A stretch of DNA of 33,919 nt from a virus. Taxonomy: Duplodnaviria > Heunggongvirae > Uroviricota > Caudoviricetes. The stretch lies in the IMG/VR virus record IMGVR_UViG_2579778797_000012; one strand, written 5' to 3'. Position numbers: made by a program. Positions 12,001 to 15,000 of the stretch are shown here, in pieces. How positions within the stretch are numbered: position 1 is the stretch's first letter; every line of letters begins with the position of its first letter.

Positions 12001-15000
12001 CCCAGGACCTTAGCAAGCAGCTGTACCCCATAATGAAAGAGCTGAACTCCTCATACACGAACAAGCTGTATGACATTGCGTTTGAGACTATCTACATGGT
12101 GACGAAGAACAGAGATGTGCTACTGAGAGAGGCGGCACGGCTTGACCAGTCGAGTTTCGTAGTTCAGCGGGCCAGACCAATGCTGAAAAGCCTGCGGGCA
12201 AGACAATTTGAATTCTGATACCAAAGGAGCTTCGGCTCCTTTTTTTATACCTGAACGACAACGCCGCTGAAATCGAAGAGTTAATACAATAAAGAGAAGA
12301 GCTCAGTACATTAGATAAACATTTTTTATCATTATCTCATTGCCTTTATTCAAAAAAATAGTTACATAACGTTACTAGGTAAAATGCAAACCCTCGCTAT
12401 TTTTATCAGATTGTATGCCGGTAACTATAACAAAAATCAGAACTGGAGAAGATGTTTTGTCAGCAGCCATTCACCGCATTGAATGGTTGTTTGAAACATT
12501 CTCTTCTGTATGTTTATCTTTTTCTGGCGGTAAAGATTCCACTGTACTTTTCCATCTTGTAGCCGAAGTGGCCTACAGGAAGAAACGTCGTTTTTCTGTA
12601 TTGTTCATTGACTGGGAAGCCCAGTATCAATGCACCATTGATCATATACAGAAGATGCGGATGATGTACCAAGATGTAACAGATACCTTTTACTGGGTTG
12701 CACTTCCCCTGACGACAGTAAATGGTGTCTCGCAGTTTCAGCCTGAGTGGATATGCTGGGAGCCCGGTGTAGAGTGGGTTCGACAGCCACCGGAAGATGC
12801 TATTACTGATATGGCGTATTTCCCCTTTTACCGCTACGCCATGACTTTTGAAGAATTTGTCCCAGCTTTTTCTTCCTGGTTCGCAAGTAACCAATGTAGC
12901 GTGGCAATACTGACTGGAGTCCGCGCGGATGAATCTCTTAACAGATTTATGGGACTGGTTTCCCAACGAAAACTGAGATATGCAGATGATAAACCCTGGA
13001 CCACGGCGTCACCTGAAGGTTTTTACTACACCATGTATCCGCTGTATGACTGGAAAACCAACGATATCTGGGTATATAACGCTAAAACCTGTGCAATCTA
13101 CAATCCTCTGTATGATTTGATGTACCGTGCAGGCATTCCTCTACATAATATGCGTGTCTGTGAGCCTTTTGGCCCGGAACAGCGTAAGGGACTATGGCTT
13201 TATCATGTTCTGGAGCCAGAAACTTGGGCACGGATGTGTGAACGAGTATCTGGTGCTGCCAGTGGGGCTCTTTATGCCAATGAAAGCGGGGCCTATTTTG
13301 CCCTGCGTAAACGGATGTCAAAACCATCCCATCATACATGGCGCAGCTATGCGTTCTTCCTGCTGGACGTAATGCCGGAAAGAACGGCTGAACACTACCG
13401 CAACAAGATAGCAGTCTACCTGCGCTGGTATCAGAACCGGGGATTCCCGGATGATATCCCGGATGAACAGGAAAATGATCTGGGCTGCCGGGATGTTCCC
13501 TCCTGGCGACGTATTTGTAAGACTCTCATAAAGAATGATTTCTGGTGCCGAACGCTCTCCTTCAGCCCCAACAAACCCCGGCACTATGAACGTTACCTGC
13601 AGCGTATGAATGAAAGGAGGAAGGAATGGGGAATTCTGTGACACCAGAGGTGGAGGTGCTGAGCAAGATGATTCGACAGTACTTCAGTCAGGAACAATCT
13701 GAAGAGAAAACCATACAGGCCCTGAACCATCTCCGCTGCGTACTCCATGAGATCAGCCCCTTTGCTCAAGAACCAGTGGACTGTGTGCTGTGGGTAAAAG
13801 CGGATGAAATTGTCGCTAACGATTATAATCCCAATGTCATGGCCCCAAGCGAAAAAAAATTACTGAAACAATCTCTGGAAAAAGACGGTTTTACTCAACC
13901 AATTGTTGTTTCGGAAGAAACAAGCCATTACCTGGTGGTGGATGGTTTTCATAGGCAGTTACTAGGTAGAAGAACAGTTACTGGAAAACGCCTGAAAGGC
14001 TGGCTACCAGTAACCTGTATTAATCCAGACCGAAAGGGACAAACCTCACGTATTGCCGCGACTATCCGACATAACAGAGCCAGGGGGAAACACCAGATAA
14101 CCTCAATGTCTGATATTGTCAGAGATCTTTCACGTCTTGGCTGGACTGATGAACGTATCGGAACAGAACTGGGGATGGACCAGGATGAAGTTCTGAGGTT
14201 AAAGCAGATTAGCGGGCTAACGGAGTTATTTCAGCAGGCAGATTTCAGCCCTGCATGGACTGTTACATAAAGTTAGGTTAGGCCTGTGGAGCCGGGGAAT
14301 CGGAATTAAACATCTTCCCTCCCCGGTAAATACAAATAAGGGCTGAACATCATCCCGACTACCTCAGATCACCTAATAATATATCAAGATTATTTTGCGC
14401 ATTAATGCTATTCGCCATTACTGTTGCTGCTTCTGGCAACTTTCCAAGAGCAATAAATATATTCTTAAGGCTGATTGGAATTGATGAACCATGCGGATCG
14501 CGCCACTCACCGCAAATTCTGTGAGTTTCATCACAAAGCCTGAACGCATCCCAACCTCCATATTGACCAAAAATTATGTCCATTGACTCTATTTCTGCGG
14601 GCGATAACTCCCCCAGCTCATCAACAGAAGAAAATGTACGCCACATTTCAACCTTATGATCCGCTACATCAGATATCCATGATTCCCACGGACTGTACTC
14701 GTTTTCACTTCCATCCTTAACCAAAGAATATGTCTGCGATAAAACGGGTCCTTTGTTCATAGAGAAATAATGATCACCACTAATGGGAAAACCATACAAC
14801 TCCATTGCTTTGCGGTCAGAGAGATACATCAGCTTAATGAAACGCATAGATCCGCCATGTTTTTTCAGCAAATACGCTGCCATTTACGCAACTTTTTCTT
14901 CATTAAACATAAATCGGCTCTCTGTCTCACATGAAATACTCTTTCTGACTATATGTTAATAGCTCCGGTTATTACAGGTTAATGTGTGTTTATTTCTTAA

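Follow-up and report, generated by a model that had tools for sequence, protein, structure and literature searches.

The ibrA/ibrB gene pair of a prophage: a candidate ATP-dependent, DNA-directed complex

The window, meaning the whole 33,919-nt stretch of DNA that was analysed (IMG/VR record IMGVR_UViG_2579778797_000012, Caudoviricetes), carries two overlapping genes that are 99.8% identical in DNA sequence to the annotated IbrA and IbrB of Escherichia phage PhiR5_2. The pair and the features that bear on it are as follows.

12223-12247, + strand: intrinsic terminator of the upstream antirepressor gene; the stem (12223-12242) has 8 bp, AAAGGAGC/GCTCCTTT, around a 4-nt loop and is followed by a T run
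12248-12414, + strand: AT-rich upstream region, 167 bp, 31.7% G+C
12415-13641, + strand: ibrA, 408 aa; its PP-loop ATP pyrophosphatase domain belongs to the PAPS-reductase / FAD-synthase / CysD clade and precedes a helical DUF3440 domain
12523-12540, + strand: PP-loop SGGKDS of IbrA, which binds ATP phosphates (from the translation and its conservation in 41 sequences)
13132-13638, + strand: residues 240-408 of IbrA, the DUF3440 half; largely helical, with a net charge of +8
13615-13620, + strand: Shine-Dalgarno sequence AGGAGG of ibrB, within the 3' end of ibrA, with a 5-nt spacer to the ATG at 13626
13626-14270, + strand: ibrB, 214 aa; divergent nucleotide-binding domain of the ParB/Srx fold, with a helix-turn-helix after it
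13941-13955, + strand: DGFHR motif of IbrB, located where ParB has its GERRxR box and Srx its GCHR motif
14064-14093, + strand: arginine-rich box IRHNRARGKH, IbrB residues 147-156; positional equivalent of the ParB/Noc ENLQR nucleotide-binding box
14103-14210, + strand: helix-turn-helix region of IbrB, approximately residues 160-195
14359-14883, - strand: Panacea-domain ORF (profile search), convergent with the pair
32594-33706, - strand: Eib/YadA-family trimeric autotransporter adhesin gene of the same prophage; a candidate target outside the module

An earlier sequence-only reading had already noticed both open reading frames, the SGGKDS, DGFHR and IRHNRARGKH motifs, the AGGAGG, the terminator, the AT-rich stretch and the convergent gene; all of them are present, and the coordinates that it gave are correct. 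The two genes overlap by 16 nt, the ibrB reading frame being shifted by 2 nt relative to that of ibrA, and this overlap together with the Shine-Dalgarno sequence inside ibrA implies that their translation is coupled, as had been proposed. Overlaps of 16 or 28 nt are found in 60 of the first 84 loci examined. The start of ibrA is the ATG at 12415 according to PGAP, and a TTG 42 nt downstream (12457) in the PhiR5_2 annotation. The promoter of the pair presumably lies in the AT-rich region, where a consensus scan of 12248-12414 detected no sigma-70-like site. This region is unrelated to the DNA upstream of the island and plasmid alleles, with homology beginning at about codon 6-7 of ibrA, and lies outside the conserved mobile unit. 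No conserved cis-site was found beside the module, the upstream DNA differing between alleles, and no inverted repeat or parS-like site is conserved next to the genes. The terminator marks the 5' boundary of a swappable cargo slot in this phage lineage, since Shigella phage POCJ13 has other genes between the same antirepressor and the giant virion gene. The pair has a G+C content of 46.8%, compared with 54.4% for the adjoining 8.4-kb virion gene and 50.4% for the prophage part of the window, consistent with the earlier remark that it is more AT-rich than the late genes. The Panacea-domain gene next to the pair is an orphan.

IbrA scores 61.3 bits on the Pfam family PAPS_reduct and 115.4 bits on DUF3440, against cut-offs of 22.5 and 25. 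This architecture is common to all 120 homologues listed, and the assignment to the ibrA/ibrB family is upheld. The AlphaFold2 model of the protein has a pLDDT of 86.6 and a pTM of 0.83. By fold and profile matches the nearest solved relatives of the N-terminal half are CysD and FAD synthase, with Cap9-CdnD (PDB 9nto) as a weak match. Within the PP-loop G39, K40 and S42 never vary among 41 sequences reaching down to 28% identity, in which S37, G38 and D41 are at least 90% conserved. Because this SGGKDS loop is canonical and invariant, IbrA would be expected to bind ATP rather than PAPS, a point that counts in favour of the explanation preferred below, and adenylyl transfer is the likeliest first step of its reaction. 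The DUF3440 half, for which no solved structural counterpart was matched, is the part of IbrA most likely to hold the substrate. The C-terminal extension does bear cysteines in this sequence (C358, C368 and C378), as the sequence-only reading had noticed, but the family does not conserve them: no cysteine of IbrA is invariant among the 41 sequences, and the four commonest cysteine columns are occupied in 54-76% of them in 15 different combinations. No IbrA-ParB fusion occurs among 10 unusually long proteins of the IbrA family.

IbrB is more divergent. It scores 18.9 bits against Pfam ParB_N, below the cut-off of 26.3, so that of the profiles named beforehand only those for IbrA were recovered above threshold, though IbrB matches phrog_2159, 'ParB-like partition protein', with E = 4.9e-91. 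A profile of the IbrB family retrieves H. pylori ParB (4umk, 2e-5), Noc (3e-4) and SbnI (0.018) from the PDB. In these matches DGFHR aligns with the ParB 'GERR' and the IRHNRARGKH box with 'IENLQR' of Noc. Among 18 IbrB sequences, down to 35% identity, the invariant residues are D106, G107, H109 and R110 of DGFHR, which is devoid of the Srx catalytic cysteine; T146, H149, N150, R151, A152, R153, G154 and H156 in the region of the arginine-rich box; and L182, G183, M184, E188, V189, R191 and L192 of the helix-turn-helix. The latter region matches HTH-containing PDB chains and phrog_6831, 'transcriptional regulator', and helices are predicted at 161-170, 175-182 and 186-196 in an AlphaFold2 model of low confidence (pLDDT 49.6). 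The protein ends about 20 residues past the helix-turn-helix, a tail too short to leave room for a ParB-type C-terminal dimerisation domain.

The pairing of IbrA and IbrB is obligate. In all of the first 84 loci examined, IbrA has an IbrB-like ORF next to it on its own strand, at most 18 nt away or overlapping. Of 38 informative viral loci, 37 show the pairing too, with IbrA identities as low as about 28%, a level to which the adjacency is kept in phages of six bacterial groups. The two proteins co-diverge (Pearson r = 0.93, 120 loci). The description of a self-contained two-gene module is upheld, as no third gene family recurs among 112 neighbouring ORFs of 17 diverse viral loci; in particular, no cysteine desulfurase, nuclease or other effector recurs there. 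The pair is present in 220 isolated phages with distant hosts and in 1,930 of 5,426 complete E. coli genomes (about one third). It is not an undescribed system, as had been suggested: besides the PhiR5_2 annotation, it bears its name in the PGAP annotation of about 1,900 E. coli genomes, and K-12 has a paralogue, ybdNM. IbrB is 87% identical to the PGAP 'IbrB-like domain-containing protein' of the O157:H7 island, and IbrA 91% identical to its counterpart. The allele of the window is found in 19 E. coli records at 99% identity or more, against about 1,920 records at 80-90%, and is thus a rarer, phage-borne one. The name of autonomous moron, given to the pair by the sequence-only reading, does not hold in general: phages of Streptococcus, Microcystis, Mycobacterium and Flavobacterium embed it in replication, recombination or packaging modules. 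It lies between helicase genes in Streptococcus PY1, directly upstream of the large terminase in Mycobacteriophage Obutu and between terminase and portal in Flavobacterium FCV-1, and the order in Microcystis Mwe-JY13 is primase, methylase-like gene, two ParB/Srx genes, IbrA, YqaJ and RecT.

The island pair of ECOR-9 and O157:H7 (Sandt, Hopper and Hill 2002) belongs to the same family and has the same overlapping architecture, ibrA then ibrB. The window pair differs from that of O157:H7 in having no PerC gene downstream, in facing the convergent Panacea-domain ORF and in its unrelated upstream region. Island copies in E. coli are followed by PerC-family regulators and also keep company with YadA/Eib-type adhesin genes; in strain JML285 a divergent ibrAB-perC cassette lies directly upstream of a YadA-family adhesin gene. 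The adhesin encoded at the far end of the window has a signal-peptide-like N-terminus and matches Pfam YadA_anchor (59.3 bits), the YadA anchor 2lme (E = 1.6e-18) and the EibD stalk 2xzr (E = 8.5e-8). Activation of prophage eib genes is the role for which ibrAB received their name (Sandt 2002, cited by PMC7649339). The only genomic associations with this activity found here are the Eib/YadA-type gene in the same prophage and the adhesin beside the JML285 cassette. With the pair and a candidate target gene together in it, the prophage is a natural system for testing such a link.

In the paralogous K-12 operon ybdN-ybdM (YbdN 56% identical to IbrA, YbdM 61% to IbrB) the gene for a PAPS_reduct and DUF3440 enzyme likewise comes first and overlaps a ParB-like gene behind it. 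It differs in being a core chromosomal locus with conserved synteny, a 28-nt overlap and a dedicated LysR-type repressor, YbdO (CitR). The operon is controlled by YbdO, and ybdO itself is reported to be H-NS-regulated; when ybdO is deleted in K-12, ybdNM is derepressed and the cys regulon is induced at the same time (PMC9068703). It adjoins ybdL (methionine transaminase), and relatives in Klebsiella and Enterobacter add methionine-salvage-like ORFs, as judged by sequence rather than by profile. One source states that 'YbdM is completely uncharacterized' (PMC8764527). In agreement with the earlier reading, no paper reporting a biochemical activity of the pair was found in the literature.

A PAPS-reductase-family PP-loop ATPase alongside a ParB-superfamily protein is also the arrangement of DndC/DndB, and of SspD and BrxP, whose substrate is DNA. 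The likeness does not extend to the chemistry, for which the sequence-only reading had used DndC/DndB as an analogy. IbrA scores 17.8 bits against the DndC equivalog TIGR03183, which has a cut-off of 290.4, and 20.6 and 17.6 bits against the PADLOC DndC models. The [4Fe-4S] cluster of DndC requires cysteines, C280 being indispensable (PMC11662687); IbrA has neither these cysteines nor the cysteine dyad and carries DUF3440 in their stead. IbrB has DGFHR in contrast to the DGQHR of DndB, and a PADLOC search gave no match for it, including none to a DndB model. Genes for DndA, DndD/DndE or SspB/SspC are absent from the window and from the 112 ORFs of the 17 diverse loci. The match of IbrA to PADLOC BrxP (28 bits) covers only 80 residues of a 779-position profile, and with no BREX genes (PglZ, BrxC, BrxL) near the pair, membership of BREX type 4 was rejected. 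So was an assimilatory PAPS/APS reductase (CysH), as IbrA falls below the cut-offs of both profiles (NF002537, 33.1 bits against 154; TIGR02057, 32 against 254.2) and has no conserved C-terminal cysteine. The PP-loop of CysH is degenerate, unlike the canonical ATP-type SGGKDS of IbrA. Because IbrA has no conserved cysteine and fails every DndC and CysH test, Dnd-like sulfur chemistry is unsupported, and sulfur or phosphorothioate chemistry by the pair appears unlikely.

CysD (the small subunit of ATP sulfurylase) and eukaryotic FAD synthase / FMN adenylyltransferase have an SGGKDS-type loop and transfer adenylyl groups from ATP; however, only about 160-200 of the 408 residues of IbrA align with them, their substrates are small molecules, and they have neither DUF3440 nor a ParB-like partner. 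A modifying enzyme with an adjacent ParB-fold partner is known from phages and mobile elements: the phage T-dioxygenase 5mYOX176 requires ParB176 for action on double-stranded DNA (PMC13229309), and the DpdB ATPase works with DpdA (PMC12839542). The dependence on the partner is established for those systems, in which the catalytic component is an Fe/2-oxoglutarate dioxygenase or a transglycosylase. No transglycosylase occurs in the window or the sampled loci, and Dpd 7-deazaguanine DNA modification was discarded as a candidate. The CTPase clamps ParB (partition type), Noc and KorB resemble IbrB in domain order, with a ParB fold and its nucleotide boxes, or counterparts of these in IbrB, ahead of a helix-turn-helix, and ParB and Noc are the best profile hits of IbrB in the PDB. 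IbrB differs in its sub-threshold ParB_N score, in having DGFHR and HNRARG in place of GERRxR and ENLQR, in the lack of room for a dimerisation domain and in having no ParA partner, no ParA-like gene being present in the window or the sampled loci.

The explanation preferred here, with a probability of roughly 0.4, is that the pair is an ATP-dependent complex directed at DNA, with a modifying or activating action that does not involve sulfur, and that it switches on silenced genes of horizontal origin. It builds on the observed domain identities, conserved residues, obligate pairing, missing sulfur-chemistry hallmarks and genomic associations. IbrA and IbrB would act as a single two-subunit machine with DNA as the substrate. 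IbrB would be the targeting or activating subunit, binding DNA and, in its NTP-bound state, loading or opening the duplex for IbrA. The latter would be the catalytic subunit, cutting ATP at its alpha-beta phosphate linkage and passing AMP to an oxygen nucleophile of the substrate, and the product would be an adenylylated group or one in which AMP has been replaced by a non-sulfur nucleophile. The outcome would be changed protein binding on AT-rich horizontally acquired DNA, which would explain both the activation of silent prophage eib genes by ibrAB and the retention of the pair in phage DNA-handling modules. A bolder version of this scheme is a new two-protein nucleic-acid modification enzyme in which a ParB-fold NTP switch brings a PP-loop adenylyl-transferase to DNA, its non-sulfur mark (adenylylated, or with AMP replaced by another nucleophile) relieving the silencing of acquired genes, those for Eib/YadA adhesins among them, and being used by phages on their own genomes; in this full form it is tentative and rather unlikely.

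Counted in favour of a DNA-directed complex are the obligate pairing, the ATP-type loop, the lack of a sulfur relay, the boxes and helix-turn-helix of IbrB, the DNA-metabolism contexts in phages, the precedents of 5mYOX176/ParB176 and DpdA/DpdB, and the link to gene activation through eib. Counted against it are the small-molecule substrates (sulfate, FMN), rather than polymers, of the closest solved relatives of IbrA, a DUF3440 fold that matches nothing solved, and the absence of both an IbrA-ParB fusion and a conserved cis-site. DNA binding, ATP turnover or a modified nucleoside was not found in the literature for any family member. SMRT methylomes exist for many ibrAB-positive E. coli, in which no unexplained modification is known to have been reported. 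The cys regulon induction that accompanies ybdNM derepression (PMC9068703) may also point to a sulfur or small-molecule role.

A doubtful but possible alternative makes IbrB itself the effector, as an NTP-switched DNA clamp of the VirB/KorB type acting against H-NS-type silencing of AT-rich acquired genes, with IbrA working off DNA to make or remove the nucleotide ligand of IbrB or to modify IbrB covalently. VirB is a CTP-dependent anti-silencer, and the invariant helix-turn-helix and nucleotide-box equivalents of IbrB suit such a role, as do the PerC-family regulators behind island copies. As a general NTP switch the ParB fold can bind CTP, ATP or GTP (PMC12704722), and Cap9-CdnD is a solved case of a PP-loop enzyme that covalently modifies a protein partner. 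Gene activation is the sole known phenotype of ibrAB (PMC7649339), and the control of ybdNM by YbdO, with ybdO reported as H-NS-regulated (PMC9068703), points the same way. A clamp of this kind would nevertheless leave unexplained the pair in virulent-type Flavobacterium and Mycobacterium phages and in Streptococcus phage replication modules, and both the short tail of IbrB and the lack of a conserved parS-like site beside the genes speak against it.

The metabolic surroundings of the chromosomal copy suggest instead that the pair might act on a small molecule or free nucleotide, IbrB being kinase-like and IbrA adenylylating the resulting oxyanion, so that a metabolite or signal affects expression indirectly. 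Srx, SerK and SbnI are ParB/Srx-fold enzymes that provide a kinase-like model for IbrB, and CysD adenylylates sulfate and FAD synthase FMN. These last two being the nearest solved relatives of IbrA, SbnI appearing among the IbrB profile matches, the neighbourhood of ybdL and methionine-salvage-like ORFs, the rise of the cys regulon on ybdNM derepression (PMC9068703) and the term 'predicted PAPS sulfurtransferase', used for the family in one source, all agree with this proposal. It is nonetheless unlikely: the invariant helix-turn-helix has no obvious role in such chemistry, DGFHR is without the catalytic cysteine of Srx, the pair is located in phage DNA modules, and the chromosomal synteny is limited to close relatives and may be merely historical.

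A service in phage-host conflict, either protecting the lysogen, for example by nucleotide depletion, or shielding the phage's own DNA from restriction, is improbable. The cargo slot next to an orphan Panacea-domain gene would fit it, and some island copies have an AAA-domain protein, an ATP-dependent nuclease or a NotI restriction-modification system as neighbours. Nucleotide degradation has been proposed for ParB/Srx enzymes in conflict systems (PMC10853773), and a 2026 preprint describes in-silico clusters of a nucleoid protein and a PAPS reductase, some with Arc- and ParBc-domain proteins. The anti-phage role considered by the sequence-only reading is unsupported: of 7 island or plasmid contexts sampled in E. 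coli, 2 show defence-like neighbours, and most of the sampled islands are concerned with virulence or fitness rather than defence. PADLOC is blank for IbrB and gives IbrA only the weak local BrxP (28 bits) and DndC matches, the neighbouring genes include no recurrent nuclease or other effector, and K-12 and its relatives keep a core, regulator-controlled chromosomal copy. Conflict is moreover a role and not a mechanism, and would fit the DNA-directed complex if phage DNA is what becomes modified.

Most PP-loop enzymes, such as TilS, TtuA, ThiI and QueC of the queuosine pathway, modify RNA, and the pair could do likewise, most likely on tRNA, Eib activation then being a translational effect; this is very unlikely given that there is no RNA-binding domain, that the partner is a ParB-type helix-turn-helix protein, that the pair lacks linked tRNA genes and that its phage contexts are DNA modules. 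A minimal Dnd/Ssp-like phosphorothioation of the DNA backbone, to which the shared broad domain pairing and the weak DndC matches would point, looks close to refuted by the gap to the DndC cut-off, the want of invariant or coordinated cysteines the missing desulfurase, DndD/E and SspB/C genes, and the lack of any match of IbrB to a PADLOC DndB model.

The pair, already named ibrA/ibrB, is no discovery; it marks a gap in knowledge that is clearly delimited and tractable. As a strictly conserved enzyme module of two genes it is carried by about a third of E. coli genomes, by K-12 as ybdNM and by 220 isolated phages. The search for its activity is narrowed, with sulfur chemistry unlikely, adenylyl transfer the likeliest first step and no third component needed. 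If DNA modification is indeed what the pair performs, it would constitute a new epigenetic mark tied to the expression of virulence genes, and it would give a function to DUF3440, to two y-genes of E. coli K-12 and to a gene pair of hundreds of phages.

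The two genes at 12250-14270 are ibrA and ibrB, an already known gene pair. They encode a PP-loop enzyme and a ParB-like protein. Escherichia phage PhiR5_2 matches the region at 99.8% identity, and its annotation already labels the two genes IbrA and IbrB, with the description 'co-activator of prophage gene expression'. The sequence-only reading was thus correct in calling the pair ibrA/ibrB, and incorrect in presenting it as an undescribed system, since the pair is already named in PhiR5_2 and a paralogue operon exists in E. coli K-12. The ORFs, their overlap, the motifs, the ribosome-binding sequence, the terminator and the convergent gene it had picked out are all in place:

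12223-12247, terminator upstream of the pair, 8-bp stem and T run
12415-13641, + strand, ibrA ORF, 408 aa
12523-12540, SGGKDS codons within ibrA
13615-13620, AGGAGG, 5 nt ahead of the ibrB start codon
13626-14270, + strand, ibrB ORF, 214 aa, overlapping ibrA by 16 nt
13941-13955, DGFHR codons within ibrB
IbrB residues 147-156, IRHNRARGKH

As had been proposed, the pair is more AT-rich than the late genes, with 46.8% G+C against 54.4% in the adjoining 8.4-kb virion gene. The spacer between the terminator and ibrA measures 167 bp at 31.7% G+C; a sequence scan finds no sigma-70-like site in it, and its inverted repeats are AT-rich and differ between alleles. No Rfam family matches within 11900-15100. 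The start of ibrA is ambiguous, PGAP placing it at ATG 12415 and the PhiR5_2 annotation at TTG 12457; the former has no obvious Shine-Dalgarno sequence and the latter is preceded by GGAG. The upstream start is favoured because the alleles are conserved at the protein level from about residue 6-7 onward.

The pair is widespread. By megablast it is present in 1,930 of 5,426 complete E. coli genomes, where the phage allele (the version in the window and PhiR5_2) accounts for 19 records at ≥99% identity and the genomic-island allele for about 1,920 records at 80-90% identity. The island copy of O157:H7 encodes proteins 91% (IbrA) and 87% (IbrB) identical to those of the window, and PGAP names the island products 'phosphoadenosine phosphosulfate reductase' and 'IbrB-like domain-containing protein'. 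A word-indexed search yields more than 6,800 IbrA and more than 8,000 IbrB cluster representatives, both lower bounds, and an exhaustive search returns 327 IbrA clusters (50% identity) at E ≤ 1e-30. Neither protein scores above the cut-off of any NCBIfam model. The literature searched, which covers the older key work incompletely, yielded no biochemical study of the family, and Kaljevic 2025 makes no mention of IbrB, YbdM or PAPS reductase.

ibrAB is a strict, self-contained two-gene module, as the sequence-only reading had suggested. In all 84 loci first examined, mostly from Enterobacterales genomes, an IbrB-like ORF is the same-strand neighbour of IbrA, overlapping it or lying no more than 18 nt away, and the commonest overlaps are 16 or 28 nt (60 loci). 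Of 38 informative viral contigs, 37 keep this adjacency, among them one with an IbrA of only about 28% identity; in one viral contig the gene order is reversed. The identities of the two proteins to those of the window co-vary (Pearson r = 0.93, n = 120). When 112 ORFs around the pair at 17 diverse viral loci were screened against Pfam, no third partner family recurred; only homing-endonuclease motifs and assorted phage genes were returned. Among ten long IbrA-family proteins scanned there is no IbrA-ParB fusion; one carries an ABC_tran fragment. Upstream DNA is unrelated among phage, island and plasmid alleles, and homology starts at about codon 6-7. What moves is therefore the pair of coding sequences, with a promoter supplied by each context.

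In this window ibrAB is prophage cargo. The stretch spans a host-prophage junction: a truncated ynfG comes after ynfE and ynfF (5605-10515) and precedes the phage arm. The end of the PhiR5_2 genome maps at about 10627, which places the insertion of the prophage in ynfG. The phage arm carries, in order, two antirepressor genes, ibrAB, a Panacea ORF and a gene for a polyvalent virion protein, and further along hok/gef, lom, tail fibre genes and a YadA-anchor adhesin gene:

5605-8031, ynfE-like DmsA-type molybdoenzyme gene, host side
8089-10515, ynfF DmsA-type molybdoenzyme gene, host side
11055-11339, + strand, antirepressor 1, 94 aa, AntA N-terminal domain only, a PGAP pseudogene in strain EC2
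11427-12218, + strand, antirepressor 2, full Ant protein in tandem with the first
14359-14883, - strand, Panacea (SocA-like antitoxin) domain ORF, convergent with ibrB
15034-23397, - strand, polyvalent protein, 2,787 aa, with LPD38, LPD5, LPD1 and MuF_C domains
26674-26814, - strand, Hok/Gef-type toxin ORF, 46 aa, late region, further prophage cargo
27045-27776, - strand, Lom/Ail outer-membrane protein gene, late region, further prophage cargo
32594-33706, - strand, Eib/YadA-family trimeric autotransporter adhesin gene, 370 aa, same prophage as ibrAB

The related Shigella phage POCJ13 has different genes in the slot occupied by ibrAB. The second antirepressor is a 630-nt gene in PhiR5_2 and PGAP (PGAP start 11589), shorter than the ORF listed. 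No toxin gene is visible beside the Panacea ORF, which travels with the phage allele of ibrAB in five viral contigs. The 2,787-aa protein, which bears an HEWFH metalloprotease-like motif, is presumably a virion-associated or injected multi-domain protein.

In E. coli islands and on a plasmid, ibrAB is surrounded mostly by genes for virulence or fitness and by insertion sequences, often with a PerC-family regulator next after the pair. It is also found in 220 isolated phages, with hosts that include Flavobacterium, Mycobacterium, Streptococcus, Arthrobacter, Bacillus and Microcystis. The four phages detailed place it within DNA-handling modules: in Streptococcus phage PY1 it is flanked by helicase genes, in Microcystis phage Mwe-JY13 it has primase/methylase-like genes on one side and YqaJ-RecT on the other, in mycobacteriophage Obutu it lies immediately 5′ of the large terminase gene, and in Flavobacterium phage FCV-1 it separates terminase from portal. 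The extracted Obutu locus (L128, 1-4474) has two ParB-like products, gp1 and gp5, and the gene of the IbrA homologue, gp4, lies between theirs. There gp4-gp5 occupies the spot where the small terminase would be expected, a position that may indicate a link to DNA packaging.

The pair takes its name from the activation of prophage eib genes, which encode immunoglobulin-binding adhesins (Sandt 2002, as cited in PMC7649339). The adhesin gene at 32594-33706 belongs to this class; its product combines an N-terminus resembling a signal peptide with a YadA anchor (E = 1.6e-18) and a stalk segment weakly similar to EibD (E = 8.5e-8). Partial copies of the gene occur in 49 E. coli genomes, at a median of three places per genome. 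In E. coli JML285 (NZ_AP024114.1; locus L134, 6893-12486) a tRNA-Phe island carries ibrA, ibrB, perC, a gene for a 1,002-aa YadA-family adhesin and an OmpA-family gene. The ibrAB allele there is divergent (77% DNA identity), and the arrangement independently connects ibrAB with YadA-type adhesins by physical proximity.

IbrA scores above the Pfam cut-off for both predicted profiles (PAPS_reduct, 61.3 bits; DUF3440, 115.4 bits), and its AlphaFold2 model is confident (pLDDT 86.6, pTM 0.83). In an alignment of 41 sequences reaching down to 28% identity, the PP-loop residues G39, K40 and S42 are invariant together with D66, E68, T74, W115, W121, S174, P209, D217 and Y233; R170, E173, R177 and the YDW motif (211-213) are nearly so. 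No cysteine in this alignment is invariant. The most frequent cysteine columns are filled in 54-76% of sequences, one of them being alanine in the window protein. The columns occur in 15 different presence/absence combinations across the 41 sequences, which argues against a metal or Fe-S site; on this co-occurrence test such a site was rejected. The best PDB matches of the family profile are CysD (2.5e-10) and FAD synthase (1.1e-9), with PAPS reductase behind them (9.4e-7); the helical DUF3440 half has no counterpart among solved structures. Given the invariant PP-loop, the lack of an invariant cysteine and the CysD and FAD synthase matches, IbrA resembles an ATP-binding, adenylyl-transferring PP-loop enzyme rather than a reductase or a sulfur-transfer enzyme.

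For IbrB the corresponding score, 18.9 bits on Pfam ParB_N, lies under the 26.3 cut-off. Among phage families IbrB does match phrog_2159 ('ParB-like partition protein', E = 4.9e-91), and its best PDB profile matches are H. pylori ParB (2e-5) and Noc (3e-4), the ParB-fold kinase homologue SbnI also appearing (0.018). Across 18 partner proteins, down to 35% identity, the blocks N-D-Y-N-P-N, D-G-x-T-Q-P, D-G-F-H-R and T-x-x-H-N-R-A-R-G-x-H are invariant, as is a helix-turn-helix (L-G-M ... E-V-x-R-L). Alignment with ParB and Noc places DGFHR at the GERR position and HNRAR at the ENLQR position. About 20 residues follow the helix-turn-helix in IbrB, too few for a ParB-type dimerisation domain. Its predicted structure is of low confidence (pLDDT 49.6, from a shallow alignment).

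The favoured reading, with a probability of roughly 0.4, is that ibrAB is a two-subunit ATP-dependent machine acting on DNA. IbrB would bind DNA and, through a nucleotide-bound state, present it to IbrA or activate IbrA, which would adenylylate an oxygen nucleophile and leave a non-sulfur mark. The outcome would be a changed protein occupancy on AT-rich acquired DNA. There is precedent in the phage thymine dioxygenase 5mYOX176, which requires a ParB partner for double-stranded DNA (PMC13229309), and in the ParB-like ATPase DpdB, which acts with DpdA (PMC12839542). An NTP-switched anti-silencer, in which IbrA is an accessory or modifies IbrB, is possible but on the unlikely side.

A small-molecule adenylylation pathway is unlikely; it draws on the similarity of IbrA to CysD and FAD synthase and on the K-12 paralogue operon ybdNM (L125, 4748-6570), whose products are 56% and 61% identical to IbrA and IbrB and whose genes overlap by 28 nt. 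This operon is repressed by the LysR-type regulator YbdO/CitR, and the cys regulon is induced when it is derepressed: deletion of ybdO raises ybdN by 5.5 log2-fold and cysDNC, cysJI and cysAWU by 2-2.8 log2-fold (PMC9068703, Table 1). YbdM, described in 2022 as 'completely uncharacterized', rises 29-fold upon carriage of a blaCTX-M-15 plasmid (PMC8764527). Sulfiredoxin-like repair was considered because ybdNM lies close to ahpCF and dsbG; it was rejected, because the Srx cysteine is missing from DGFHR and only close relatives share the synteny.

A role in phage-host conflict is quite improbable. Defence-like genes lie close to ibrAB in two of seven sampled island or plasmid contexts; the PADLOC defence-system library gives no match for IbrB and weak, local matches to IbrA. 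RNA modification by the pair is very unlikely, and phosphorothioation of the DndC/DndB kind, the analogy drawn in the sequence-only reading, is scarcely credible after failing profile, cysteine and gene-content tests. Although already known as a pair, ibrAB is a worthwhile experimental target, with constraints that are now sharper.
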